In this document: positions 5,353 through 52,872 of the stretch, in pieces
How positions within the stretch are numbered: position 1 is the stretch's first letter
Layout: every line of letters begins with the position of its first letter
Origin: a virus
Length of the DNA stretch: 64,000 nucleotides
IMG/VR virus record: IMGVR_UViG_3300028840_006907
Location: 1 to 64,000 of that record
Reading direction: 5' to 3' (one strand)
Notes under the pieces: model-generated
Seen by the model: only the letters and a program-made list of their open reading frames with translations
Databases searched by the model: none
What the model was told of the DNA's origin: nothing
Position numbers and translations under genes: made by a program

Positions 5353-6360
5353 TTAATCTACCCATTGAATTTTTCTACGGTACTGACCTGTTACTTCATC
5401 TATATCAGAGACATTTCCTGCTTCCTTTACTATTAAATTTAATTTACGTTTTAATTCTAGCTGAAGATCATCACTTTTTATTATTTCGGGAGAAGTATGT
5501 TTCTCCAAAAAATTATTTTTTAAATCAAGCAATTGTTTTTCAATGCTCACATCTCCAACAAAATTGAGTTCTGAAAAATCATCAATAAATTTTTTAAGTG
5601 AATTAATAGTAGGGCCTTTAACAATTTTCCCTGATTTCATATTGGTGGCGATTTTATCACAAAGAGTTACTACTTGTTCACGAAGATTTGTAACAACCTC
5701 ATTGATAAAAGAACCAATCTTTTCTTGGGCCTCTTTCTGATAAACATCGTAGGCAATATTCTCTTTTGCAATTTTATCTTCAGAAACTTTTCTCATTTTC
5801 GGTAGAGCAATTTCAAATATATTCCAGGTTAAAGAGAACCTATTTCTTAATGAAGTTGTGCTTGGATAGTATGATTTTATTCGGTCAAGAAAATTTGTGA
5901 CGAATTCTTCCTCTTCGTTTTCTTTACCTTCAATACTGAATTCATGAACACCTATTTTTGTTTGTCGGTTATAGGCAGCTTTGGCTGCTTCCTCATAAAT
6001 AGGTAGCATCTCTTTTCGTAATTTGTCGTAATCAACAATCAGGTTATCGATTAATTTATTATATGCCTCCTGATATTCCTGAAGAGTTTGCAGTATTTTT
6101 AAAAATTTCTTTTTGGGTACAAACCGTGCTGAACTTATAGGGAATTTAAAACTGTTCGTCTCAACTAGAAACCGAGCTTTACTTTCAATAGATCTGAATT
6201 TATGTATGGTTTCTTTTGGAACGAGCATCTTCTTACCAAGAAGATAAACATTAGATATAGTGTCTTTTTCTAATCCCAAGTCTTGAGCAGTCAGGATTTT
6301 TGCTCCAGTCCAGAACCGCACTTTAATTTCAACTAAAACACCATCTTTAAATATATCCAT
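5353..6360 (-). CDS. DUF3150-like protein (plasmid/phage-associated)
   Basis: N-terminal VLVEIKVRFWTGAKILTAQDLGL pattern recalled as typical of DUF3150; 335 aa. Confidence 0.4.
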   Translation of the reverse strand: MDIFKDGVLVEIKVRFWTGAKILTAQDLGLEKDTISNVYLLGKKMLVPKETIHKFRSIESKARFLVETNSFKFPISSARFVPKKKFLKILQTLQEYQEAYNKLIDNLIVDYDKLRKEMLPIYEEAAKAAYNRQTKIGVHEFSIEGKENEEEEFVTNFLDRIKSYYPSTTSLRNRFSLTWNIFEIALPKMRKVSEDKIAKENIAYDVYQKEAQEKIGSFINEVVTNLREQVVTLCDKIATNMKSGKIVKGPTINSLKKFIDDFSELNFVGDVSIEKQLLDLKNNFLEKHTSPEIIKSDDLQLELKRKLNLIVKEAGNVSDIDEVTGQYRRKIQWVD

Positions 6361-12355: not shown

Positions 12356-13540
12356 TTATCCTCTTACATAATCAGTTACACAGTTAATTTCATCATCACT
12401 TATCCAGGCACCGTGATATCGTTCAGGTTCAGAAGCACCAGGATAAATCATTAACATATCTCCCTTACCGGCCAGAGCTTCAGCTCCATTGCAATCAAGA
12501 ATAACTCTGGAATCATTTTTGGATGATACTTGGAATGAGATCCTTGAAGGCATATTGGATTTAATAAGACCAGTGATAACTTTAACGATAGGCTTTTGAG
12601 TTGCAAGTACCAGATGGATACCTACTGCTCTGGCTAATTGAGCCAACCGTACGATCATTTTCTCAAGTTCTTTACCTGAAGTCATCATAAGATCAGCCAT
12701 CTCATCAACCACAGTTACTATATAAGGAAGTTTTGTATCGGAATTTTTATTAAAACTTTCGATATTTCTTACTCGATAATCAGCTAAGAGTTTATATCTA
12801 CGATCCATTTCTTCAATTAAATCTGAGAACACATGCACCGCTTCTGAGGGCTCGGTAACCACAGGGCATCTCAGGTGGGATAAATTATTATATGACGCCA
12901 TTTCCACTCTCTTGGGATCGACAAGGACAAGCTGGCATTCATCTGGTGTTCGAGTAAATAATATTGAAAGAAGAATACTATTTATACATACAGATTTACC
13001 TGATCCAGTTTGACCTGCGATTAAAAGATGAGGCATAGTAGTCAAATCGATTATTTTTGGATTACCAATAGTATCGGTTCCAAGTACGATGGGAATCTTG
13101 GTATTGGAATCAGTGGTAAAGATATCACGGAAACCGATAATGGATCTTGTTTCATTCATCATTTCTATTCCAACACAAGCTGTACCTGGAATGGGTGCTT
13201 GGATTCTGATATTGGATGACATTAAAGCCATTGCGATATCTTCAGTGATCTTTTTAATCTGAGCAATCCTTACACCTTTTGATAATTTCAGTTCATATCG
13301 GGTAACCACTGGGCCATGTTTAATATCCTGGACAGCAGTATCGAATCCAAGTTCAGCGATCCTGTTTTCAAGATCATGAGAGCTTAAACTGTTGGGTATT
13401 CTATTGGATGAATACTCGTTTAAGAGTCCTAAATGAGGTTTTCTATATCTTTTGTTTTTCTTCTTTTTACATGCATCTTCCTCGGAATTAAGGAGTTGCA
13501 TTACATTTAAGAGCTTTCTGAATTTTGTTGATTTGTTCAT
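12356..13540 (-). CDS. FtsK/SpoIIIE-family DNA translocase motor (alpha/beta domains only)
   Basis: GPVVTRYEL, APIPGT..VGIE, Walker A GQTGSGKS, Walker B VVDEMADLMM; no N-terminal TM or gamma domain. Confidence 0.8.
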   Translation of the reverse strand: MNKSTKFRKLLNVMQLLNSEEDACKKKKNKRYRKPHLGLLNEYSSNRIPNSLSSHDLENRIAELGFDTAVQDIKHGPVVTRYELKLSKGVRIAQIKKITEDIAMALMSSNIRIQAPIPGTACVGIEMMNETRSIIGFRDIFTTDSNTKIPIVLGTDTIGNPKIIDLTTMPHLLIAGQTGSGKSVCINSILLSILFTRTPDECQLVLVDPKRVEMASYNNLSHLRCPVVTEPSEAVHVFSDLIEEMDRRYKLLADYRVRNIESFNKNSDTKLPYIVTVVDEMADLMMTSGKELEKMIVRLAQLARAVGIHLVLATQKPIVKVITGLIKSNMPSRISFQVSSKNDSRVILDCNGAEALAGKGDMLMIYPGASEPERYHGAWISDDEINCVTDYVRG

Positions 13541-13556
13541 AATTCCTCCACAATAT

Positions 13557-13571
13557 ATTATACGAGATCTC
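13557..13571 (-). promoter_or_regulatory. GAGATCTC palindrome fused to TATAAT box upstream of FtsK-like gene
   Basis: Minus strand reads GAGATCTCGTATAAT, then GGAGG and ATG at 13540. Confidence 0.4.
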
Positions 13572-13698
13572 TTAAAGAGATTCCAGGTTTTTCTTGGGGC
13601 AGAAGTCTATTTTCTTTTATATCAAACCTTTACAAGAGAAAAAATTAAATTAATAATCTTTTGATATTATTGCCTTTGTTTACAAAGAAAGGGTTATA

Positions 13699-14712
13699 AT
13701 GAAATATTTAATTTCTCATCAGATAAAAGTGTTGGCGAATTGTTTAGAGAACTATAAAGAGGTATGGGATATAGTTCCTATAATGATGCGGATCTCTTTT
13801 GAGAATCCCAAATTAAGTATGAAAGAGATTCAGGTTAAAAGTAAGATGGAAAATTATGGGAATCTTTTTTCAAGAATAATGGCAGATTTAAAAACTGCTC
13901 AGGAAAAGAATATTGTTTTCAAAAGACCTCATAAAGTTTTTAAGCAAGCGGATGATTTGCTTGTGTTATTTAATAAGTTGACAGGTAAAAAAGAAACCAC
14001 AAGTGAGAGTTCTGAAAATGAGTTATTAGATATTGTTAATATCCTTTCTGAAAATGTCAAACCTTTATCAAAAAGACCAAAGTGGGAAATTGAAAATCTT
14101 AAGGTCATGGATGATATCGATGCCTTAATGAAGAAGTTTCCTTTTACCATTCAAACGGTATTGCAACGCTCCATAAAAAGGAAAGAAGAAATAGAGCAGG
14201 AATTGGGAAAAGGTGTCACAGCAAAAAGAGAAATAAAAGTGTATCTCGATATGGATAGTTGTATCACCGACTGTGACAAGGCTATCAGGAAGCTAGGACC
14301 GAAAGTTGCCAAAGGTTTAGCAGATGATGCTTCCGAGGAAGAGAAGCAATACATGTATGATAAGATTGAAGAGAAGGGGGCTGAGTTCTGGTCTGAAATG
14401 GAATGGATGCCCAAAGGTGAAGAGCTTTGGAAAGTGGTAAAGAAATATGATCCTGTTTTGCTGTCCTCACCAGGATTATTTAAATGGGCTCCTGGTGGAA
14501 AGAAAAATTGGGTAGATAAAAATATTCCAGGAACAACTTTGTATCTTGATATTGACAAATATCAATGGGCTGAACCCGACTCAGTTCTCATCGATGATCG
14601 GGTTTCAAATATAGAGAGTTGGAAAGAGGCCGGTGGTGAAGCCATCCTTTATGAAAATGATCCAGAACTCGTTAAATTAAAACTAAAAGAGATCATCAGT
14701 CAACCGGGGTAA
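13699..14712 (+). CDS. protein with C-terminal HAD-like 5'(3')-deoxyribonucleotidase-type domain
   Basis: YLDMDSCI (DxD-type) and C-terminal VLIDDRVSNIESWKEAGGEAILYEND; only long plus-strand gene in the left arm. Confidence 0.45.
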   Translation: MKYLISHQIKVLANCLENYKEVWDIVPIMMRISFENPKLSMKEIQVKSKMENYGNLFSRIMADLKTAQEKNIVFKRPHKVFKQADDLLVLFNKLTGKKETTSESSENELLDIVNILSENVKPLSKRPKWEIENLKVMDDIDALMKKFPFTIQTVLQRSIKRKEEIEQELGKGVTAKREIKVYLDMDSCITDCDKAIRKLGPKVAKGLADDASEEEKQYMYDKIEEKGAEFWSEMEWMPKGEELWKVVKKYDPVLLSSPGLFKWAPGGKKNWVDKNIPGTTLYLDIDKYQWAEPDSVLIDDRVSNIESWKEAGGEAILYENDPELVKLKLKEIISQPG

Positions 14713-17330: not shown

Positions 17331-17497
17331 AAAAGTAACTCCTTTAATTTTAATGTGTATGATCCATATTACTTAACCTCAATATTTCGAGGACATTACA
17401 AAATCTTAATAAATTATACCCAGAAAATTTCAAATAAACAAGATTAAAGTTTTAGCATTTACTTGTGAGAAAGTTATTGGTAGGTACTCCTAAATGT

Positions 17498-17528
17498 CAA
17501 GGGCACCAGGAAGTAGCCAGTGCCCTTG
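17498..17528. promoter_or_regulatory. perfect 9-bp inverted repeat with 13-nt spacer
   Basis: caagggcac...gtgcccttg in the 310-bp gap upstream of the PKD gene start. Confidence 0.3.
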
Positions 17529-17639
17529 AAGTCATCATTAATCATCAGTGGAGTAAAGTATTGTTTATATTTCATTATATTTTTATGGGAAGGAATTTAC
17601 AAGAAAAATTTTGAATATAAAGTAACATGGAATGGATAA

Positions 17640-18146
17640 TTATTTTTTATTGTTTTTGATTTTTAATAGATTCATTTTTGTTTTAAGTGTTTTTTCATTA
17701 ATCGATAATGCAGTCGCAACTTTTCCAGCAGTTTTAAATTGATGAAATAAAGCTTCAATGATAACTTTTTCTTGTTCATCTGTGACATTTACATGTATCC
17801 CTAATTTCTTGATTCGAGCACGGACTGAAGACACACTGGTCTTTAATGCTTTTGCAGTATTTTGAATGTTATATTTATTCTTTTTCAGAATATTCTCAAA
17901 CCATTCTTTTCTTTTCTCAGGATCTTTTGGTTCTCCTTCCAGGTAACCATAATCGTTATCAATTCCTAAACGTTTCATTTGTTCATAAATAGTTTGGGGG
18001 GATTTACCCAGTGCTTCTGCAACTTTCTTACCGTTACCATATTGATTTAAAAGGGCTAAAAGAATAACTTTTTTCTTTTTATCTTCTTTTTGAATACGTT
18101 CTTTAAAACGTTTTTTCTTTACTTTTGAATCTAATTTGGTTGTCAT
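17640..18146 (-). CDS. DNA-binding protein with three tandem Fis-type-like HTH motifs
   Basis: KVAEALGKSPQTIYEQMKRLGI, NTAKALKTSVSSVRARIKKLGI, KVATALSINEKTLKTKMNLLKI. Confidence 0.55.
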   Translation of the reverse strand: MTTKLDSKVKKKRFKERIQKEDKKKKVILLALLNQYGNGKKVAEALGKSPQTIYEQMKRLGIDNDYGYLEGEPKDPEKRKEWFENILKKNKYNIQNTAKALKTSVSSVRARIKKLGIHVNVTDEQEKVIIEALFHQFKTAGKVATALSINEKTLKTKMNLLKIKNNKK

Positions 18147-18195: not shown

Positions 18196-18519
18196 TTATT
18201 GAATTAATTTTGTAGCCATCTCATAATAGATTTTGTCCATTTTAGGACATTGTCTTTCCATTTTCTTTAACCAGTCAATAACTGAATCGCTCTCTTCAAT
18301 TGGTGGTACAGTTTCAATAATTTTAAAAAACTTTTTGAAAATTCCAGTACCACATGTCTCATAGTAACCACTATTACCATAATCAGGATAAACTTGGTAA
18401 TATGGTCTACCATTTTTATCTTTCTCTTTATATTCACAGAAATAATGTTCTCCTAAAGAATAACCTTCCAATCCATTCCTGGCCATAGGAGCTTCGATAC
18501 ATAGACATAATTGAAACAT
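18196..18519 (-). CDS. hypothetical protein
   Basis: 107-aa ORF downstream of NAD-binding gene. Confidence 0.45.
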   Translation of the reverse strand: MFQLCLCIEAPMARNGLEGYSLGEHYFCEYKEKDKNGRPYYQVYPDYGNSGYYETCGTGIFKKFFKIIETVPPIEESDSVIDWLKKMERQCPKMDKIYYEMATKLIQ

Positions 18520-18539
18520 CTATTACCATCCTTTCATTT

Positions 18540-19607
18540 TTATGGTTTAAATTCTTTATCTATGGCATATTTAATCAATCCAGAGAAATGTTCCAAAACA
18601 TCTGGATATTGAATTGAATTAAATATTTCATGGGATAAATTAGAATTATATTTTTGATTATCTACAGTAATATAAGGAGCGAAAGTTTTACCTACAGTTC
18701 TGTAATATAATTTTTCAAATTTATTTAAATTATTTGGAAATTTATCAACAAATTCAAATTCCTTTACATTTAGCATATTTAAAATAACGGAAAAGTATTC
18801 TTTATGTAATGGAGGATTTGGGTTTATTATATTAAGTTCTGTAAAATCTTCATTGATAGATTTACATATGATTTTAGCAACATAATCTACAGGAACAATA
18901 TTAAGAGTTTCATTTAAATTAATGTGGATTCTAATTGGCATATCCATTTTATATCTATAAAAAAAGTATGCCCAACCATAGAATACATCAAATTTTAAAG
19001 TAATATATAAAGGGAAATCAATTAAACGACCACAGATAACTGAAGGTCGTAATATCTGATAATGAATATTATATTTTTTACAATAACTTGATATATATGT
19101 TTCCATAGTTGATTTAGTTTCTTCATAGGGATTTCTATAAATATTTTTAATTCTATTTACAAATGCTGTACTTATATAAATAAATTTATAAAGTTTTTTA
19201 CTATCGATATTATTTATCAAATTTATAGTTCCCAAATTATTATTTAATAAAAGTTCTTGTTCTGTAGCTTTATCTGTCATTAAATTTGTTGAAGCGGCAC
19301 AATGTATTACTGTCAATTTCTTAGTATCAATATTAGAAATTATATGAAATAATTCTTTACAATTTAAATGACATGGGATAATTTGAAACCTTTCTTTAAG
19401 TATATTTATTGAATATTTCTTTATGAATTCTGGAATATTTTCTGGAGCAAAAATATTTATGCCTCTTTCTATAGGAGTCATATTATTAAAAGGTCTAATT
19501 AATAAAAAAAGTTTAGATGATGAATTATATCTAATAATTTTTTCAAGCAATTCAAAAAAGATATGACTACCTAATAGACCTGTAACGCCTGTAATTAAAT
19601 AATCCAT
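18540..19607 (-). CDS. NAD(P)-binding epimerase/thioester-reductase-like protein
   Basis: N-terminal ITGVTGLLGSH Rossmann motif, YISTAFV, YEETK (YxxxK). Confidence 0.55.
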   Translation of the reverse strand: MDYLITGVTGLLGSHIFFELLEKIIRYNSSSKLFLLIRPFNNMTPIERGINIFAPENIPEFIKKYSINILKERFQIIPCHLNCKELFHIISNIDTKKLTVIHCAASTNLMTDKATEQELLLNNNLGTINLINNIDSKKLYKFIYISTAFVNRIKNIYRNPYEETKSTMETYISSYCKKYNIHYQILRPSVICGRLIDFPLYITLKFDVFYGWAYFFYRYKMDMPIRIHINLNETLNIVPVDYVAKIICKSINEDFTELNIINPNPPLHKEYFSVILNMLNVKEFEFVDKFPNNLNKFEKLYYRTVGKTFAPYITVDNQKYNSNLSHEIFNSIQYPDVLEHFSGLIKYAIDKEFKP

Positions 19608-19651
19608 ATTGAATCCTTTTTAATGGTTATGTGCGATATTGATTTTTTTAT

Positions 19652-19999
19652 TTACGATTTTTCCATTTCTTTTTTCCAAGTATATGTGATATATGAATAA
19701 TCAATATCTTTAAGTAATTTGATTTTCTCTACAGCATTTTCAATATCTGGAATTGATCCTGTTATAAAAAATCTTTTTATTGAAATATTTTCCTCATCAC
19801 AATATCCTGGATTAGAAAAGATAAGGGATAATTTCTCGGTTTTAATTTCTGGTTCTTCTGAAGAATCTTTATTTATTGTATTAAAAATTTCTTCCTCAGA
19901 TAATGAGTTATTTTCGGATAATTCTGATTTTATAAATTGAATAAAACTCTCTGTATTTACATCAAATAATTTGAACATACATTCAGGTAAATTAGGCAA
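19652..19999 (-). CDS. hypothetical protein
   Basis: 115-aa ORF. Confidence 0.45.
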   Translation of the reverse strand: MPNLPECMFKLFDVNTESFIQFIKSELSENNSLSEEEIFNTINKDSSEEPEIKTEKLSLIFSNPGYCDEENISIKRFFITGSIPDIENAVEKIKLLKDIDYSYITYTWKKEMEKS

Positions 20000-20018
20000 A
20001 ATTTTTATCCTTTATTGA

Positions 20019-20222
20019 TTAATCTTCTACAGTGACAGTGGCTTCAGCTCCGCAGGTACAGCATGTCCAAGTGTTATCTGGATTAGGGAATGCAACGGTC
20101 TCAACTGATTCATCGACAACTTCAAGAAAATTACCTGTTTCATCTACTTTCCAGTCCTGGGAGACATGGGCAACAGTTTCAAATGTTTTATGATCCGGGT
20201 TATTGGGACATATAGCTTTCAT
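20019..20222 (-). CDS. hypothetical protein
   Basis: Start moved to internal ATG abutting upstream stop. Confidence 0.4.
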   Translation of the reverse strand: MKAICPNNPDHKTFETVAHVSQDWKVDETGNFLEVVDESVETVAFPNPDNTWTCCTCGAEATVTVED

Positions 20223-20223
20223 A

Positions 20224-20526
20224 TTAAAAATCCTCTCCGAAAATGTATTTGTGATCCCAAGTACTAAGAACGATACCTTTATAATGTGTTTCTTTTTTCT
20301 TGTAATCAACAAAATATTTTTCAATTAAATGTTTATCTGTAAAGTAAAATACTTGTTTAAAATTTTCAGATGCAATGGCAATCAATTGACCAATCTTATT
20401 GAAAACAAGAAGATCATTCTCGTTAAGTGGAAAGAGAATGATCTCATCGTAATCATTTAAACATTGCATATTCCGTACACCTGCTTTGCGTTCAGGAAAT
20501 ATTATTTCAGTTATTTTCTTTGTCAT
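20224..20526 (-). CDS. hypothetical protein
   Basis: 100-aa ORF. Confidence 0.45.
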   Translation of the reverse strand: MTKKITEIIFPERKAGVRNMQCLNDYDEIILFPLNENDLLVFNKIGQLIAIASENFKQVFYFTDKHLIEKYFVDYKKKETHYKGIVLSTWDHKYIFGEDF

Positions 20527-20529
20527 AAA

Positions 20530-20772
20530 TTACTCCCTTTTAAAAATATCAGCGACAAGCGTTCCACCGTGTTTAAGTATTTGAATTGCACTAACAATAA
20601 TAATTGTTAAGATGAGAGGTGCTCCGACCATTACAATCAGTGGACCTAGAATCTTAAAAGTTTTTAACATATACTCCGCATCTTCTGCGGGAGTCGTTGA
20701 CCAGGTTCTTGAAGCATATATCTGTGCTACAAAAGCGAGACATAAGATAAGTAAAAAGACTTTTTGTTTCAT
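20530..20772 (-). CDS. small secreted/membrane protein
   Basis: Signal-like N-terminus MKQKVFLLILCLAFVAQIYA plus second hydrophobic helix. Confidence 0.45.
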   Translation of the reverse strand: MKQKVFLLILCLAFVAQIYASRTWSTTPAEDAEYMLKTFKILGPLIVMVGAPLILTIIIVSAIQILKHGGTLVADIFKRE

Positions 20773-20851
20773 GATTTTTTCTCCTATCTACTTGGAAATA
20801 TTGTACTTGACTTTAATTATACCATAAATTTATATTATTTTTCTCAATTTA

Positions 20852-20897
20852 AATGGGGTGGCTCCCATCATCTCATTTCTCCCCGGCTTTTCCGGGG
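20852..20897. other. GC-rich structured element: ATGGGGTGG box plus CCCCGG-N5-CCGGGG hairpin (copy 1)
   Basis: atggggtgg...ccccggcttttccgggg in intergenic gap; second copy at 45640-45669. Confidence 0.4.
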
Positions 20898-20973
20898 TTG
20901 TCCCACCACAATTATATATTTATTTCTTCAATTTTCCTTGGCAACACCGGGGTTCCCATCATAATCATACACA

Positions 20974-21882
20974 TCAATACTTCGACTGATTACATCCATG
21001 ATTAAATTTGTATTCATTTAATTCATCATTGGACATATGTCCATGTTTCTTGATCGTTTCTTCTAAAATCTGAGGTAATAACTTTTCACCCCAAACTCCC
21101 ATGTTCGGGACAATCTCTCCTCTTGAATTTTTGGATTTGGTAGGGTCTCCTTCAAGAGCATTGGCTCTGATTTTATTTCGTTCCAGTAGCTCCCATTCCT
21201 CATAGTCCTCACGATAAAATCTGTACAACCATAAAAGTTCGATCTCACTCATGAAAGGACATAATAAACAGTTCGATGGATAAGGCACATGCAAGCCCGT
21301 AGAGGCCATGTAATCCTGGCAATCCTTTCTATCCATTCCCATCTCTATGAGTGGATAGATAACCTCTATGGCTTTCTCCTGCCATTTTGGGCGCTCACCC
21401 TTGTTAACACGTTTTTCTTCTCCTTTGGCAATACCGATAAGCATATTGATTTTATCATATGTTTCAGCAAATTGTTTCAATCCTTTCTTTCTTCCTGATT
21501 TAAATCCATATTCTTTTTGAATCCAGTATTCGAGATATTTATATATAGGTCTCAATTTAAGTCTTTCGGTACAAGTTTTGGGAAAACATTTGCTTCCAAT
21601 TCTATTTTTTGTTTTATAGAAAAATCTTAATGTTTGCCAGTCGGGAGAGTGGAATCCCATGTCGTTTGTAAGATGAACAAATTCTACTACATTTTGAGAA
21701 CAGAATTCCTTTATAAATTGTATATGTTTATAGGTATGGGGATGCTCATCACCAGTATCGGCCATGATCACCAAAAGCCGTCCTGGTGCATATTTTTTTC
21801 TGAAATTGTTATCGAGGGCGTACTTGTAAAGTAAAGTGGTGCTGTCTTGTCCGCCCCCGTAACTTAAGACCGTAAGTTCCAT
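20974..21882 (-). CDS. PAPS-reductase/ATP-sulfurylase-like (adenine-nucleotide alpha-hydrolase) protein
   Basis: N-terminal LSYGGGQDSTTLL PP-loop variant of SGGxDS. Confidence 0.65.
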   Translation of the reverse strand: MELTVLSYGGGQDSTTLLYKYALDNNFRKKYAPGRLLVIMADTGDEHPHTYKHIQFIKEFCSQNVVEFVHLTNDMGFHSPDWQTLRFFYKTKNRIGSKCFPKTCTERLKLRPIYKYLEYWIQKEYGFKSGRKKGLKQFAETYDKINMLIGIAKGEEKRVNKGERPKWQEKAIEVIYPLIEMGMDRKDCQDYMASTGLHVPYPSNCLLCPFMSEIELLWLYRFYREDYEEWELLERNKIRANALEGDPTKSKNSRGEIVPNMGVWGEKLLPQILEETIKKHGHMSNDELNEYKFNHGCNQSKY

Positions 21883-23508: not shown

Positions 23509-23708
23509 TCGCACTTTACATGGTAATTTAAGAATGATGCTTCATCCCATTTTTTTCCATTGTCTAATACAACTATATCACCTTCCCGTTCAATGACGGG
23601 AGGTTCAATAGCAACGACAACAACAATATCATTGTCTAATGTGCTTCGATATTTTATTCCAATTTCAATCATATCCTTCCTCCTGGTTAAATGGCATACT
23701 CCATCCAT
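23505..23708 (-). CDS. hypothetical protein
   Basis: 67-aa ORF. Confidence 0.35.
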   Translation of the reverse strand: MDGVCHLTRRKDMIEIGIKYRSTLDNDIVVVVAIEPPVIEREGDIVVLDNGKKWDEASFLNYHVKCD

Positions 23709-23887
23709 TTTAATTGTGCCCTTTCCATAAAGGAAAATTTATTATCGATCATCCAGGTTTCTAATTCATTTTTATTCTTGAAGTATCCGGCTTTTACTTT
23801 CCTGGTTAATAAGAGCATCAATTTAAATTTATTCATAGCTTCTGTTTCCATTATATCTTGGTTCTTTAATCTCAGGTATTGAGGCAT
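23687..23887 (-). CDS. hypothetical protein
   Basis: Start set to ATG at 23885-23887, preceded by AGGAGGA. Confidence 0.4.
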   Translation of the reverse strand: MPQYLRLKNQDIMETEAMNKFKLMLLLTRKVKAGYFKNKNELETWMIDNKFSFMERAQLKWMEYAI

Positions 23888-23903: not shown

Positions 23904-23918
23904 ATTATAAGAGATCTC
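23904..23918 (-). promoter_or_regulatory. GAGATCTC palindrome fused to TATAAT box
   Basis: Minus strand reads GAGATCTCTTATAAT, then AGGAGGA and ATG. Confidence 0.4.
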
Positions 23919-24247
23919 AGATAAAGATTCAATATGAATCTTTTAGAATACATTTAATTATATGATTTTTACATACATACGAAAGGCGTAATGGCAAATG
24001 CTATAAGAAAAATAGCAAGAAGAATGAGGCAGATATCGGGTGATTTCATAACATTTTACTCCTTTAAAAGATAGAACTTTGAATTTTTTGGGGTTTCATT
24101 ATCAAAGAAAGCTATTGCTATAATATCTCCTTTGACAAAGAATTGAGTTGCATTCCTAATATTATTAATATTGAATGTCTTATCTTTCATAAATTCTTGA
24201 AATTCAATCTCGGTCACAAGGGAAAGCTCATTCATATCTAATACCTT

Positions 24248-30524: not shown

Positions 30525-31458
30525 TAAATTCTACAAAAGTAGTATTGAGCATTGAATCATCCGGTAACGGGAAAGGCATAATTAAAGAAGTCGAATCATT
30601 ATTTGAAATAGTTACTGCGTGTTTCTTTGATTTGGGAAAATTTATATATCCCTGTGCAAGCTTTAAGACCTTCTTTAAATTATTAGCATCAAGCATAATA
30701 ACCTTATCAGGAAACAATTCAACACCAATATTGATTTTAAAAGAAAGCCCTGCACCACTCACAACTTTAATATCAGTACCATCAAATACCACAAACATAT
30801 TCAAGATATAGTGAGGCTTTAATAATTTAAGAGCTTTAAGAATATCCTTCTTAATCTTATCGGTGATTTCGATATGGGTATTCCCTTTAGGAACACAGTG
30901 AAACCAGGAAGGATAGACTTCTCTAGTAATAAGCTCACAGATAATTGTAACACCATCACCTTTTGCAATAGAATACTTATCATTAAAGAATATCTGAGTT
31001 AGTTTAAAATGGTGTAACAGTTTCCAGAACTCAGGTCTTATTAAAATCGATTCCGGTATATCTTTTAATTCATGAGTGTATAAGATCCGGCCATCAGTCG
31101 CAACAATACATTCATGTTCTTTATCGAAATAAATCCCTGATAAAGAATTATCTTTATCGTTACTTACGAAATTCACAATCTCGTATGGGATATCTGTGAC
31201 ATCAACCATAGGCATCTCAGCATTTAAATCAACACCGAGATTCATTTCTGGAATATCAGAGTAACCCATATTTAATAGTTCACCCTTACTGAATGTGTAA
31301 TGTCCTTCTTCCATTTCTGAATCTATGGTAACCCATATCCAACCATGTTCTTTATGATTCGTGAAATGAGCTTTCCCATTAGAGAAGAATATCCTATTGG
31401 TTTTTGATAACATTTTTATCTTTTTCAAAGTTTTGATACTCATAATTATTAACTCCAA
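30517..31458 (-). CDS. hypothetical protein
   Basis: 313-aa ORF overlapping both neighbours. Confidence 0.55.
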   Translation of the reverse strand: MELIIMSIKTLKKIKMLSKTNRIFFSNGKAHFTNHKEHGWIWVTIDSEMEEGHYTFSKGELLNMGYSDIPEMNLGVDLNAEMPMVDVTDIPYEIVNFVSNDKDNSLSGIYFDKEHECIVATDGRILYTHELKDIPESILIRPEFWKLLHHFKLTQIFFNDKYSIAKGDGVTIICELITREVYPSWFHCVPKGNTHIEITDKIKKDILKALKLLKPHYILNMFVVFDGTDIKVVSGAGLSFKINIGVELFPDKVIMLDANNLKKVLKLAQGYINFPKSKKHAVTISNNDSTSLIMPFPLPDDSMLNTTFVEFNG

Positions 31459-31838
31459 TCTTCCATGTGATGGATAATAGGTTCATCTTCACAAATTTCC
31501 CAAGCATCATTTAAATATTCTGTGACGTTCTTGGCACAGGTCTTATAATCCCAATCCAGGATTTCACCACCAAGGAATTTAGCAAAAGCAAAACGTTGAT
31601 ACTTTTGTGTCTTTGGATTCCAACGAGCAATTTCACAATAGATTCCTTCACTACCAGAGTTTTCTACCCGAGCGATACATTCATCTTTGATTTTGATTAA
31701 CTCTGATACTTTTATATGATTACACTCTTCTCCATATTGAGAAAAAGATAATTGTTCGATTAATTGTTTTGTTTCAGTATTCATACTTTTGTTGCTCCGC
31801 ATTTCTTTATTTGTATTCTCTATAAATTCTCTACTCAT
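31449..31838 (-). CDS. hypothetical protein
   Basis: Start set to second ATG, preceded by GGAGG. Confidence 0.45.
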   Translation of the reverse strand: MSREFIENTNKEMRSNKSMNTETKQLIEQLSFSQYGEECNHIKVSELIKIKDECIARVENSGSEGIYCEIARWNPKTQKYQRFAFAKFLGGEILDWDYKTCAKNVTEYLNDAWEICEDEPIIHHMEDWS

Positions 31839-31868
31839 AAAAACCTCCATTATTAATCATTATAAGAG

Positions 31869-31883
31869 ATCTCAGAAAAGGAT
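31869..31883 (-). promoter_or_regulatory. GAGATCTC palindrome fused to TATAAT box
   Basis: Minus strand reads GAGATCTCTTATAAT, then GGAGG and ATG. Confidence 0.4.
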
Positions 31884-31963
31884 TCAAGGAAATTCTTCTA
31901 AGATCTTTTAAATATAAATTATATGTATCTGGAAATATTATAGTTATAGGTAGGAAGAAATAT

Positions 31964-35046: not shown

Positions 35047-35238
35047 TTATTTACTCCTTGTTAAATCCTCAAGCTTTATCCCCAATCCACGTACCTGTTT
35101 AAATAACTCCGGGAAATCTCTCACTATTATAATCCTCGGCTTATCCTCAATCAGCCCATAAGCACTTAGCTTATCTGAACTATATCCTAAATTAACCTGT
35201 AACGATACTTTATCCATATTCTTACCTCCATATAACAT
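35047..35238 (-). CDS. small conserved protein, paralog of 33690-33872
   Basis: About half the residues identical to 33690-33872 product. Confidence 0.55.
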   Translation of the reverse strand: MLYGGKNMDKVSLQVNLGYSSDKLSAYGLIEDKPRIIIVRDFPELFKQVRGLGIKLEDLTRSK

Positions 35239-35740
35239 TATATATACCCAATTACCTTTTTTATCCAGTAATATAACATTTTAATACTATCAAATACCAA
35301 CGTCCTATATGGTGCGTCCGTATTAATCTCTATTAAATCAGTCGTCCTATATCTTTAAACTATGGTCTATATAGTAATAAACACGATCTATAAATCAAAT
35401 AACAATTTTAAGGTAATCCTCTTACTCATCAATATCCATATCTTTATAATAAAAAACCCACACATAGCACCTATAAAAATGTGGAACCCTTTAAGGCATT
35501 TCTTAAGTAACTATGTATGGGCACTGAAAGGGATTTATACAAATCCCATTATTATCTTAATATATTAACTTACTATATGTCTATACCTATAAACATATCC
35601 CCCTATATATTACTAATTAGTAATATGAATGTAATTATCCCTATCCCCTATATCTAATAACCTATAAACTATCCATTAAGTATATCTGTATCCTATCCAT
35701 ATAATAACTCTGTAAGAGAAAATTAATATGTATCAGTATG

Positions 35741-35890
35741 CCCATTACCTTGAATAGAATAATGAGTAAGTCAGTACCAGGAACTATACCATCATGAACT
35801 ATGAACTCGGAACTATGTCAGGGAAAACTTGAGTACTTACCCATTACCTTGAATAGAATAATGGGTAAGTCAATACCAGGAACTATGTCG
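35741..35890. repeat. about 48-bp direct repeat x2 (period 99 bp), each with internal inverted repeat
   Basis: cccattaccttgaatagaataatg(a/g)gtaagtca(g/a)taccaggaactat at 35741 and 35840. Confidence 0.85.
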
Positions 35891-36057
35891 GGAATTTCCA
35901 ACGAGTATTTTGAAAAAATTTATTCTCCCTGCAAAACCCGGAACCGATTTCCTAGTTCCTACAATCATATATTAATAATCTTTTGTTATCTGTATAAGTA
36001 AATTTACACAGGGTAATTGACTGATCAAAGTAAGTTAATGTCTTCCCAAACCGAGTC

Positions 36058-36141
36058 TTTGACTTGGGGAAATTGGTTGTTGACTGTAGAGAAGAATAAT
36101 TTCACTTGCTCATTTGGGTATTTGACTTGGGGAAACTGGTT
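36058..36141. repeat. 21-bp direct repeat x2 (period 63 bp)
   Basis: tttgacttggggaaa(t/c)tggtt at 36058 and 36121. Confidence 0.85.
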
Positions 36142-36511
36142 CCCGACTATCAAAAGTGGGGTTAAAAACGAGGGGGGTTACCCCTAAATTTGATATTTCC
36201 AGACTGGGAACTCAGACAGGGGCGATTCCAGACTGTTTCTGGCCAGACTGGGGGAAAGACCTAAGACGGTCTTAGTCCACTCATCCAAGACCATTGCCAT
36301 TTATCTGATCCGTAGCTCCAGACCTGGAATGACTTGGATAGAATTTTATATGTTACTGCCAGACAGAAAATGATCTTTGAGTCTCCACGTCCCAGGATTT
36401 CCTGGACACCGTGTAATCCACGGAACTCTAGGCTATCGGCTGATTTAATTTCGTTCTGAACTTCTATGGGAAGTTCATTCATGTTTATTTGATCTATACT
36501 TGTGATATGCA

Positions 36512-36703
36512 TTAGTCTCTCAATGCCTCACAGGTAAGGGTAGCGGGAACTACTTCAAACTGAGTTCCAGGTTCAGTACCTTGTGTGAGTTCTACTGTAC
36601 GTATGCTGGCTATATTAAAGTCAGTATAGAACTCTGTGTTATCATCCCATGCGAATTTTTTATCTTTATTTATTATGATCCATCCTTGTAATTTCATAAT
36701 CAC
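36512..36703 (-). CDS. hypothetical protein
   Basis: 63-aa ORF. Confidence 0.35.
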   Translation of the reverse strand: MIMKLQGWIIINKDKKFAWDDNTEFYTDFNIASIRTVELTQGTEPGTQFEVVPATLTCEALRD

Positions 36704-36929
36704 CTCTCATTGTACGTTTAAATAGGTTTTCAGGCCATATCCAGACTGAAGAGGTATTCAGCTACCTCTCAGTTCCAGACAGGCTTAAAACAGGTTTATT
36801 CTTCTTCATCTTCGTGGTGTATGATTTCACCAGAAGTATATCCTTCTTTAATAAGTTCTGCTATGTGTTCTCTATCAAGATCGTTGAGTTCATCAACTCC
36901 AGAGAAGGTTAAATTCCACCATCCAGTCA

Positions 36930-37190
36930 TTAGTTTAACTCCTTGATACGTTTGTTAACGGTTATTACTGCTTGTTTATATGAACAGTTTGATTTATTCA
37001 TTTCCTGAGCATACCAGATAAGTCTGATAAAAGATACACAGGCGACTGCTCTGGCATGTTCACGTTCTTTCTTGGTTAATTCACCGGGATTGAAATGAAC
37101 TCCGGCAATAGTCGGGGTTGATAAGCTTCCAGGTGCACCAAATTGCTCAATCCCATACAATTGGTTATTGATTCTTTTGATTTCTGGCAT
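36930..37190 (-). CDS. hypothetical protein
   Basis: 86-aa ORF. Confidence 0.45.
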   Translation of the reverse strand: MPEIKRINNQLYGIEQFGAPGSLSTPTIAGVHFNPGELTKKEREHARAVACVSFIRLIWYAQEMNKSNCSYKQAVITVNKRIKELN

Positions 37191-37314
37191 AATTCTCTCC
37201 TTGATTGGGGGACACTGATTTAAGTTTTACCAGACAAGTCGATTCTGACTATTTTAGACTGAAATCCAGGCTGAATTTCCAGACTGATTTGGGGAACGGG
37301 ATTTCCAGACTGAA

Positions 37315-37512
37315 CTAGTCCGAATCTTCTAGGTTTGCAGATACTTCTCCATCGATTTCTTCAACATCGAAAGGATATTCAACAGAGATTTCGTCCTCAA
37401 GAGTTTCAATAGTACAGTTATCGGGTAAAGGATCTTGTACTTTAATTCTTCTATGAATAGTAATATTATAATAACGAGCCATTGCTACCTCCAGGTTTAG
37501 GTTTGTTTCCAA
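37315..37512 (-). CDS. hypothetical acidic protein
   Basis: 65-aa ORF. Confidence 0.4.
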   Translation of the reverse strand: METNLNLEVAMARYYNITIHRRIKVQDPLPDNCTIETLEDEISVEYPFDVEEIDGEVSANLEDSD

Positions 37513-38534: not shown

Positions 38535-38557
38535 TCCTTTTTAAGAGATGTCAGATT
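38535..38557 (-). promoter_or_regulatory. conserved 23-nt leader/translation-initiation element (copy 1)
   Basis: Minus strand AATCTGACATCTCTTAAAAAGGA, 10 nt before ATG. Confidence 0.5.
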
Positions 38558-38843: not shown

Positions 38844-38866
38844 TCCTTTTTAAGAGATGTCAGATT
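38844..38866 (-). promoter_or_regulatory. conserved 23-nt leader/translation-initiation element (copy 2)
   Basis: Identical 23-mer, 7 nt before ATG. Confidence 0.5.
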
Positions 38867-39246: not shown

Positions 39247-39498
39247 TTAATCCTTTTTAAGAGATGTCAGATTACAACTTTTAGTTTGTTTAAATTTAAT
39301 GATGAATTGATCAGGGTTATCGAGTCTTACTAGGACAGTACTGGATTCATATTCATATATGATAGCTCCAGACTGTCGTAGGTCGTTCAGTATTTCTGTC
39401 TCTGGGATATTAGTATCTTTAAAGTGATAGATACTATCATTCATACCGGTAGCTCTGGGGAATTTATTATTAGGGTTTTTTGTATATTTTACTGACAT
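39247..39498 (-). CDS. hypothetical protein
   Basis: 83-aa ORF. Confidence 0.45.
   Translation of the reverse strand: MSVKYTKNPNNKFPRATGMNDSIYHFKDTNIPETEILNDLRQSGAIIYEYESSTVLVRLDNPDQFIIKFKQTKSCNLTSLKKD
39251..39273 (-). promoter_or_regulatory. conserved 23-nt leader/translation-initiation element (copy 3)
   Basis: Identical 23-mer, 8 nt before ATG; overlaps last codons of upstream gene. Confidence 0.5.
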
Positions 39499-43926: not shown

Positions 43927-43966
43927 AATGAATATCCTTTTAAAGATTACGGTTCGGTATCATATA

Positions 43967-43978
43967 TTATACGAGATT
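43967..43978 (-). promoter_or_regulatory. CGTATAAT-type box upstream of 42628-43926
   Basis: Minus strand reads ATCTCGTATAAT; half-palindrome variant of the GAGATCTC motif. Confidence 0.35.
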
Positions 43979-44023
43979 TAGGAAAGAAAGTGATAAGAAA
44001 AAAATTTAATTATTTATTTAAGT

Positions 44024-51572: not shown

Positions 51573-51940
51573 CATGAATAATGAAAAAAGTTTAGTAACT
51601 TTCCGAAGTTTTAAGAAACTTTTTCTTTGACGTTTGTTTTTTGTGGCTTTCATGAGTAATGAAAAAAGTTTAGTAACTTTCCGAAGTTTTAAAAATTTTT
51701 TCTTTCATGTAAACTTTTCCTTGTCTACATGAGTAATGAAAAAAGTTTAGTAACTTTCCGAAGTTTTAAAAATTTTTTCTTTCATGTAAACTTTTCCTTG
51801 TCTACATGAGTAATGAAATTAGTTTGGTAACTTTCCGAAGTTTTAAAAATTTTTTCTTTCATGTAAACTTTTCCTTGTCTACATGAGTAATGAAATTAGT
51901 TTGGTAACTTTCCGGAAAAAATTGTAAAAACGCTATTTTC
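51573..51940. repeat. 77-bp tandem direct repeats, about 4.4 copies
   Basis: Units begin at 51573 (degenerate), 51651, 51728, 51805, 51882 (partial). Confidence 0.95.
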
Positions 51941-52397: not shown

Positions 52398-52628
52398 CAG
52401 GGAACAGGGAACTGAGCACAGGGAACTGAGCACAGGGAACCGAGCACAGGGAACCGAGCACAGGGAACTGAGCACAGGGAACTGAGCACAGGGAACTGAG
52501 CACAGGGAACCGAGCACAGGGAACCGAGCACAGGGAACTGAGCACAGGGAACCGAGCACAGGGAACTGAGAACAGGGAACCGAGCACAGGGAACTGAGAA
52601 CAGGGAACTGAGAACAGGGAACCGAGCA
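52398..52628. repeat. 14-bp tandem repeat array, 16 copies, GC-rich
   Basis: CAGGGAAC(T/C)GAGCA with T/C and C/A variants; partial copy then units from 52405. Confidence 0.95.
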
Positions 52629-52872
52629 CCTGTATCTGTGATCTCGGAAAAGTTTCGGGAAAAAAATCGGGAACGGCTCAGGGCTGAGAAATAGGTATGA
52701 ATTTTTTTGGGGTATAATTTTTGGAGTTAAACAGTTGGGGAAATTGGAGTTATCTTATGTGAGGTGATGGGATAGTTTATGGAGGGTGAAAATTTTTTGG
52801 TATAGTTTGATGGAGAAACAGGTATAATACTTATAGGACGGAAAAATTTAAGTCTAATGGTTCGAGGATCTT

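Follow-up and report, generated by a model that had tools for sequence, protein, structure and literature searches.

Next to nothing is known of the way in which transcription is organised in uncultivated huge phages. The early promoters of phages T4 and T5 are strong, are read by host sigma70 and carry extra information in the form of TG-type extended -10 or A-rich UP elements; they head blocks of small, non-essential early genes. The Arc operator lies inside the promoter spacer of P22 Pant, and known operators measure ~14–21 bp. The met box of MetJ, to which a ribbon-helix-helix dimer binds, is an 8-bp palindrome (AGACGTCT) present in 2–5 tandem copies, and MerR-type promoters hold a dyad in an over-long spacer of 19–20 bp, which is twisted by the activator. 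The promoter-early stem-loop (PeSL) cassettes of T4-type phages (Arbiol et al. 2010, PMC2839356; see also PMC4122927) are early promoters of sigma70-like type that recur in plastic regions rich in ORFans, with a Shine-Dalgarno site and a start codon at their 3' edge; their dyad element can overlap the -35 and -10 boxes or fall between them, and their stem-loops are stable, often of the form GGGG...CCCC, act as terminators and belong to a conserved unit of ~100 bp (PMC2839356). Here we analyse a 64-kb stretch of viral DNA (positions 1–64,000 of IMG/VR record IMGVR_UViG_3300028840_006907, hereafter the window), in which the 8-bp palindrome GAGATCTC recurs one base away from a TATAAT box ahead of genes. 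PeSL cassettes are the closest analogue of this motif family, which represents a well-known type of phage regulatory signal in a form specific to this lineage.

An earlier note on this DNA, made from the sequence, had described three copies of the palindrome fused to TATAAT ahead of a Shine-Dalgarno site and an ATG. A pattern scan bears this out: GAGATCTCNTATAAT (that is, GAGATCTC[G/T]TATAAT) occurs at exactly three places in the window, each on the minus strand, namely 13557–13571, 23904–23918 and 31859–31873, the last of which the note had placed ten bases off, at 31869–31883. Each copy is followed downstream by GGAGG and then by an ATG (at 13540, 23887 and 31838), with gaps of 16, 16 and 20 nt between TATAAT and ATG. 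In 100 dinucleotide-preserving shuffles of the window the motif did not occur once. The palindrome by itself is also found three times in the window, only at the three motif sites, against 1.1 copies expected from shuffles and 0.6 from a Markov estimate. When up to three mismatches were allowed, 18 matches were found in the window and 17.7 were expected, and thus no general halo of degenerate copies surrounds the motif. Two kinds of near match stand out, TAAATCTCGTATAAT at 43966–43980 and GACATCTCTTAAAAA, which is present in three copies. The former contains the half-palindrome variant ATCTCGTATAAT that the note had reported upstream of a gene; it does lie there, at 43966–43977 rather than at 43967–43978. 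The note had called for a wider motif search, which we ran on the readable sequence of ~84 kb (the window and 10 kb on each side, from a genome of 390–470 kb): the 20 kb of flanking sequence held no further copy, so that the count stayed at three, all upstream of genes. These genes were correctly described as unrelated, since they encode a 394-amino-acid (aa) FtsK/SpoIIIE-like protein and two ORFans of 66 and 129 aa.

Alignment of the three copies, which we call W1, W2 and W3 (coordinates in Table 1), revealed that the motif forms the 3' portion of a 29-bp unit, T[TG]GAAT-N8-GAGATCTC-[GT]-TATAAT. The unit has the layout of a bacterial promoter, with a -35 box T(T/G)GAAT at -35 to -30, a T-rich spacer of 17 bp, and TATAAT at -12 to -7. 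The palindrome occupies spacer positions -21 to -14, and GGAGG follows the -10 box after 6–10 nt in the window promoters. A regular-expression scan of the window for this architecture returned W1–W3 and one plus-strand site only, and a scan with a generic sigma70-like consensus placed W1–W3 among the best matches. All three lie in intergenic gaps, which make up ~9% of the window, and are oriented towards the genes downstream. W1 follows directly on a strand switch, the neighbouring gene (13783–14712) being on the plus strand; the promoter of the leftward FtsK block must therefore lie in the 242-bp gap that holds W1. The sequence GAATC (GANTC) spans the -35/spacer junction in W1–W3 (13580–13585, 23927–23932 and 31882–31887, each with the following C) and is present in none of the orthologous promoters of relatives. 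W3 has a second 8-bp palindrome, AAGATCTT, at 31900–31907, 34 bp upstream.

Contigs of related genomes were reached via homologs of the FtsK-like protein, and the sequence upstream of the orthologous gene was compared. The comparison covers seven promoters, namely W1–W3, the FtsK promoters of the relatives L012, L014 and L015, and the promoter of the 66-aa gene in L014, which encodes an ortholog of that protein (BLASTP E = 1e-13) and is collinear with the window over the stretch between 3.8 and 27.7 kb, W2 included. The -10 box, the 17-bp spacing, two spacer T's and the CTC at -16 to -14 are invariant in all seven. TATAAT is thus exact in W1–W3 and in all four orthologous promoters (6/6 identical in every pair compared), and the -35 box stays TTGAnn-like, reading TTGAAT, TGGAAT, TTGACC, TTGAGT or TTGAAC and always standing exactly 17 bp from the -10 box. 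By contrast, flank identity between the window promoters and those of the relatives is 30–50% (12–21 of 40 aligned positions), a level at which AT-rich DNA is saturated. It is mainly this positional conservation amid saturated flanks that leads us to regard W1–W3 and their orthologs as real promoters. The shared promoter proposed in the earlier note is accordingly well supported in silico, as an intergenic, gene-oriented -35/17-bp/-10 unit kept at orthologous positions in three relatives. More distant FtsK orthologs (64–68% identity) are preceded by (T)G-TATAAT and, after 5–7 nt, by GGAGG, with neither a TTGAAT box nor the palindrome.

From their anatomy and orthologous conservation, these units are very probably promoters. 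They would be of the sigma70/sigmaA type, read by host RNA polymerase, and would start leftward blocks of mostly ORFan genes. The gap between TATAAT and GGAGG is 6–7 nt in most members, and because it is so short, the expected transcription start coincides with the Shine-Dalgarno site or immediately precedes it, and leaders would measure only ~10–15 nt. The explanation that we favour is a family of housekeeping-sigma promoters in which the palindrome is a lineage-specific cis-regulatory add-on; taken as a whole, we consider it evenly poised between holding and failing.

The add-on character is suggested by the pattern of conservation. The palindrome is identical at 8/8 positions among W1–W3 and L015, whose FtsK proteins are about 70–71% identical, and at 5–7/8 positions to L012 and L014. 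It is exact in 4/4 promoters of two lineages and in 0/3 promoters of the sister lineage L012/L014, where the corresponding positions read GAGAACTC, GGTAACTC and AACTTCTC and the promoter boxes are retained. A T-to-A change is common to L012 and L014, and further changes accumulated in L014, whereas the -35 and -10 boxes and the distance between them were preserved. As a neighbour-joining tree of FtsK proteins puts the window genome outside (L015,(L012,L014)), the palindrome appears to be ancestral to the group and to have been lost once. It is also what two otherwise different spacer types have in common: TTTAA-GAGATCTC-G (W1, and L012 with one change) and TTTTCT-GAGATCTC-T (W2, W3 and L015). 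Since L012 and L014 lost the palindrome and kept the promoter, the comparison shows it to be dispensable for the promoter itself; being unneeded for promoter recognition yet maintained where present, apparently by selection, it behaves as a regulatory add-on. The window also holds two minus-strand -35/17-bp/-10 sites that carry no palindrome, TTGTTT...TATAAT at 17413–17441 and TTGTAA...TATAAT at 17574–17602. Both lie in a 310-bp non-coding gap (17331–17639), with a GC-rich hairpin, CAAGGGCAC...GTGCCCTTG, between them.

A perfect 8-bp dyad at -21 to -14 overlaps the region contacted by RNA polymerase, as an operator would, and a protein bound there would occlude the polymerase. The earlier note had proposed a built-in operator. 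This idea gains from the finding that the 8-mer is intact in two deep lineages and two spacer backgrounds and is dispensable for the promoter; it loses by the lower conservation of the left half, the symmetry of 8 bp only, and the existence of a near-identical repeat that is not palindromic. A separate regulatory role for the palindrome, with a protein operator as its leading form, is judged from sequence conservation to be plausible, if at best evenly balanced. A bolder version holds that the palindrome is the operator of a phage-encoded regulator; sister lineages would have acquired or lost this regulator along with its sites, and it would switch host-polymerase promoters genome-wide and possibly act on TCTGACATCTC sites over transcript starts as well. 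The candidate is a 168-aa protein with repeated Fis-type helix-turn-helix (HTH) motifs; no other protein of the window is recognisable as DNA-binding. L017, which bears the palindrome, encodes an ortholog near FtsK (987–1331), and none is found in the syntenic stretch of the palindrome-less L014. This co-occurrence is a lead, not evidence, and we regard the bolder version as rather improbable. If true, it would describe a self-contained temporal circuit in an uncultivated phage of ~400 kb, readable from sequence. Among the genes directly downstream of W1–W3 no regulator is apparent, the 66-aa and 129-aa proteins being without family matches.

In comparison with the described systems, W1–W3 resemble PeSL cassettes in being repeated sigma70-like promoters in an ORFan-rich region, with a Shine-Dalgarno site and an ATG at the 3' end, and in showing signs of copy exchange and ORFan shuffling. 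They differ in having a conserved unit of 29 bp and, as their dyad, a loop-less 8-bp palindrome that forms no hairpin by itself. No stable terminator stem-loop belongs to the unit: the inverted repeats near W1–W3 differ between copies, and no terminator-like site was found beside W2 or W3. Likewise, no gene-shuffling junction mapped to a W-type promoter, and L014 runs collinear with the window across W2. Because the terminator stem-loop and the ~100-bp conservation are both missing, the family may be said to work like a PeSL promoter but to be no PeSL. With T4 and T5 early promoters it shares consensus-like -35 and -10 boxes at 17-bp spacing, extra conserved positions and T-rich spacers, and we count the position of those promoters at the head of small-gene blocks as a further likeness; it is set apart by the CTC at -16 to -14 and the palindrome at -21 to -14. 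Like Arc sites in Pant, the same site is repeated at several promoters, but perfect dyad symmetry covers just 8 bp, one half-site is better conserved than the other and any cognate protein would be hypothetical. The met box is matched in the length and perfection of the palindrome and in its presence at several promoters, but each W-type promoter has one copy, plus at most one degenerate upstream copy (W3), and no ribbon-helix-helix protein was found in the window. Unlike the over-long spacers of MerR-type promoters, the spacer is the optimal 17 bp in all seven promoters.

Table 1. Promoters, related repeats and first downstream genes in the window, with the orthologous promoters of relatives
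Feature	Positions	Strand	Sequence	Context
Promoter W1	13557-13585	minus	TGGAATctctttaaGAGATCTCgTATAAT	upstream of FtsK/SpoIIIE-like gene, divergent intergenic region
W1 parts	-35 13580-13585; palindrome 13564-13571; -10 13557-13562	minus	TGGAAT; GAGATCTC; TATAAT	17-bp spacer
Promoter W2	23904-23932	minus	TTGAATctttatctGAGATCTCtTATAAT	upstream of 66-aa ORFan
W2 parts	-35 23927-23932; palindrome 23911-23918; -10 23904-23909	minus	TTGAAT; GAGATCTC; TATAAT	
Promoter W3	31859-31887	minus	TTGAATccttttctGAGATCTCtTATAAT	upstream of 129-aa ORFan
W3 parts	-35 31882-31887; palindrome 31866-31873; -10 31859-31864	minus	TTGAAT; GAGATCTC; TATAAT	
Variant W4	43966-43981	minus	CTAAATCTCGTATAAT	right half of palindrome plus TATAAT; 39 nt upstream of ATG of 432-aa ORFan
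Sister repeat B1	38535-38557	minus	AATCTGACATCTCTTAAAAAGGA	3' AAGGA is the Shine-Dalgarno site of the next gene
Sister repeat B2	38844-38866	minus	23-mer identical to B1	upstream of unrelated small gene
Sister repeat B3	39251-39273	minus	23-mer identical to B1	overlaps 3' end of preceding gene; upstream of unrelated small gene
First gene after W1	12356-13540	minus		394-aa FtsK/SpoIIIE-like ATPase; heads long leftward block
First gene after W2	23687-23887	minus		66-aa ORFan; no family match
First gene after W3	31449-31838	minus		129-aa ORFan; no family match
Candidate regulator	17640-18146	minus		168-aa protein, three Fis-type HTH motifs
L012 FtsK promoter			TTGAAT aaatttaaGAGAACTCg TATAAT	FtsK 79% identical
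L014 FtsK promoter			TTGACC ttttttctGGTAACTCg TATAAT	FtsK 76% identical
L015/16/17 FtsK promoter			TTGAAC ttttttctGAGATCTCt TATAAT	FtsK 71% identical
L014 66-aa gene promoter			TTGAGT atctttctAACTTCTCt TATAAT	no palindrome; ortholog of W2

Two further sets of sites in the window are related to W1–W3. The variant W4 shares an exact run of 16 nt, ATCTCGTATAATATAT, with W1 and has no -35-like hexamer; it is possibly a -10-only or decayed member of the promoter family. The sister repeats B1–B3 precede three consecutive small genes that are not paralogs. B1 (AATCTGACATCTCTTAAAAAGGA) matches W2 (ATCTGAGATCTCTTATAAT) at 16/19 positions, and in all three repeats TAAAAA, fused to the Shine-Dalgarno site, stands in the place of TATAAT, with no -35 box. 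A block TCTGA[G/C]ATCTCTTA[T/A]AA occurs five times, always on the minus strand and always upstream of a start codon, and the recurring unit may be this asymmetric block. Two of the three sister repeats are directly preceded by TATAAT or TGTAAT; it is speculative, but in those two the shared block would cover the transcript start, and repressors classically bind at this position too.

Several observations weigh against the explanation that we favour. Sigma70-like matches as a whole are not enriched in the AT-rich window (91, 85 and 96, compared with 104, 105 and 83 in shuffles), so that consensus alone cannot carry the promoter argument; the call rests on consensus together with conservation. 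In the L014 66-aa promoter, TATAAT stands only 2 nt from GGAGG, which would give a nearly leaderless mRNA. For an operator of a dimeric protein, a perfect symmetry of 8 bp is short, and the extended 30-bp dyad is 76% complementary. The right half (CTC), which abuts the -10 box, is invariant in all seven promoters and the left half varies, an asymmetry more readily expected from polymerase contact or common descent than from a symmetric dimer. B1–B3 carry the non-palindromic GACATCTC in an otherwise near-identical 17-mer (sister repeat TCTGACATCTCTTAAAAA, three copies). The counts are small, with four palindrome-bearing promoters in two lineages; the HTH/palindrome co-occurrence rests on three lineages and short contigs, and a distant HTH homolog is also present in L021, which has no palindrome.

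Some of these points would be explained if the promoters were real and the palindrome had no function in its own right. The 29-bp units would then have been copied or gene-converted from one cassette, in the manner of PeSL shuffling in T4-type phages, for which there is precedent (PMC2839356), and would be palindromic by coincidence; the spacer would have been kept by recent common descent, or because a T-rich/CTC spacer makes a strong promoter. The invariant CTC beside a drifting left half and the three non-palindromic TCTGACATCTCTTAAAAA repeats fit this account. So does the fact that the L015 FtsK promoter is closer to W2 and W3 than to its ortholog W1, which itself resembles L012: the spacer types conflict with the FtsK tree, and this suggests exchange between promoter copies. 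ORFan shuffling does occur, as the 129-aa gene stands in another context in L023, and by our own estimate the chance of such a palindrome, ~1/256 per position and ~1–5% when alternative windows are allowed, is not negligible. What speaks for a function is that all eight positions agree between lineages whose FtsK proteins are about 70–71% identical and whose flanks are saturated, and that the 8-mer is precisely the part common to two otherwise different spacer types. Moreover, once broken in the L012/L014 ancestor it decayed on while the promoter persisted, as expected upon release from a separate constraint. We consider a functionless palindrome less likely than the regulatory add-on; if the palindrome were merely an inherited spacer, W1–W3 would be an ordinary phage promoter family.

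Two other accounts leave the palindrome or the promoter boxes with a different meaning. Promoters whose core elements contain GATC and respond to methylation are well known, and the GATC at the centre of the palindrome, or AGATCT, could be a methylation target, such that the methylation state of the spacer, for example in incoming versus newly replicated genomes, would give timing without a dedicated repressor. GATC is located at -19 to -16 in all palindrome-bearing promoters, GAATC marks the -35/spacer junction of W1–W3, and a beta-class N6/N4 DNA methyltransferase is encoded at 1501–2574. However, named families are matched by this enzyme at scores far under their cut-offs; GATC (245 observed, 281 expected) and AGATCT (39 and 34) are neither avoided nor enriched in the window; and conservation of the full 8-mer beyond GATC would go unexplained. 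We regard methylation as very improbable. The same ordinary frequencies led us to reject restriction avoidance. Alternatively, the contiguous block TCTGAGATCTCTTATAAT could be the promoter for a phage RNA polymerase or sigma factor, with TTGAAT incidental and the TCTGACATCTCTTAAAAA sites as weaker members. Many huge phages encode their own polymerases, the contiguous block of 17 nt occurs five times, always directly upstream of a start codon, and generic sigma70 sites are, as noted, not enriched. Against this, a TTGAnn-like hexamer exactly 17 bp from an invariant TATAAT in all seven promoters is the signature of a housekeeping sigma factor, and the block of the sister repeats ends inside the Shine-Dalgarno site, so that a start downstream would remove the ribosome-binding site. 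No polymerase or sigma factor gene was found among the 107 predicted proteins of the window, which is a minor part of the genome. A phage polymerase is thus more improbable still than methylation. An RNA element was rejected as well, for the folding z-scores of the window copies (-0.44, -0.66 and -0.59) and of L015 (+0.41) are no better than those of shuffled sequence and the structures are inconsistent between copies; Rfam and tRNA searches gave no match.

Housekeeping-sigma promoters with a regulatory add-on would have several consequences. They offer a testable promoter definition, T(T/G)GAAT-N8-GAGATCTC-K-TATAAT with a start at the Shine-Dalgarno site, and suggest that a holoenzyme of the housekeeping type transcribes the ORFan-rich left arm. 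The temporal gene class that the earlier note had raised as a possibility is a conjecture. The promoters also argue that the host uses TTGACA/TATAAT promoters and relies strongly on Shine-Dalgarno sites. Because some sister lineages have the palindrome and others do not, their comparison amounts to a natural experiment that could reveal a regulator.

The motif appears to be confined to this lineage. Exact-pattern scans of IMG/VR with three patterns gave matches at chance level, lying in uninterrupted sequence and having no -35 box or Shine-Dalgarno site; a scan of JGI metagenome contigs gave one match, with no homology to the window; and GTDB genomes gave three matches where ~4 were expected. 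As these public collections were all at chance level, we take the motif to be lineage-specific and not a widespread signal. Two further comparison sets were rejected. FtsK homologs in IMG/VR were too distant (33–46% identity; L001 has 61% GC), and the sole homolog of the 129-aa ORFan (59% identical, L023) has another gene context and no motif. A literature search for GAGATCTC returned only cloning primers with BglII sites.

Proteins identical to those of the window are encoded on a 388,651-bp JGI contig, a 469,021-bp ENA contig and a Logan contig, and the size of the first two shows that the window is part of a very large element. PHROG matches, distant phage homologs and a family of 300–590 kb contigs with the FtsK-like gene point to an uncultivated huge-phage-like genome of probably ~400 kb (390–470 kb). 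No virion gene was found in the 64-kb window, and for this reason the huge-phage assignment is one that we infer. No close relative at the DNA level was found among deposited phages, whose protein-level matches are only 28–30% identical. The window has ~32% GC, and only a handful of its predicted proteins match any Pfam family. Genes run leftward across 1–51.5 kb and rightward from 52.9 kb. The ~1.4 kb in which the two arms diverge is gene-poor and holds a 77-bp unit repeated 4.4 times (51573–51914) and the 14-bp ACAGGGAACTGAGC repeated 16 times (52404–52629); the region may serve as an origin of replication or in central control.

Other features of the window and its right flank were recorded. 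A possible mini-gene of 26 codons (MKSPDICLILLAIFLIAFAITPFVCM) with an AAAGGAG ribosome-binding site is located at 23969–24049 on the minus strand, in the gap just upstream of W2. Many short CAGTCTGGA(A)-like repeats are spread over several intergenic stretches of 36183–37319 on the minus strand, next to a stretch (35218–36260) almost without convincing genes. The sequence AAACCTTA has eight copies, all on the minus strand (2860, 10180, 24633, 24845, 27212, 44542, 49095 and 50664), of which five or six lie 8–20 nt upstream of a start codon; the bias in strand and position is striking, but the count is not above that of shuffles (8 versus 5.1). Just past the right end of the window (L010, 18853–20546), a radical-SAM protein is split by an intein with a LAGLIDADG domain, near a gene for a 1514-aa protein without a family match.

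The relatives likewise show features of their own around the FtsK locus. GATCTT/AAGATC-type inverted repeats lie ~50–75 bp upstream of the promoter in L012 (~235–255), L014 (~6205–6220) and L015 (~1262–1275), and in more distant relatives (L018, L021, L035 and L037) a ATTAAAAGATAAT-like box is found upstream of the FtsK gene. In L035, whose FtsK is 68% identical over 92% of the query, genes for a Cas3-like helicase-nuclease and a Cas7fv-like protein (18477–21215) stand directly downstream of a conserved DUF3150 gene.

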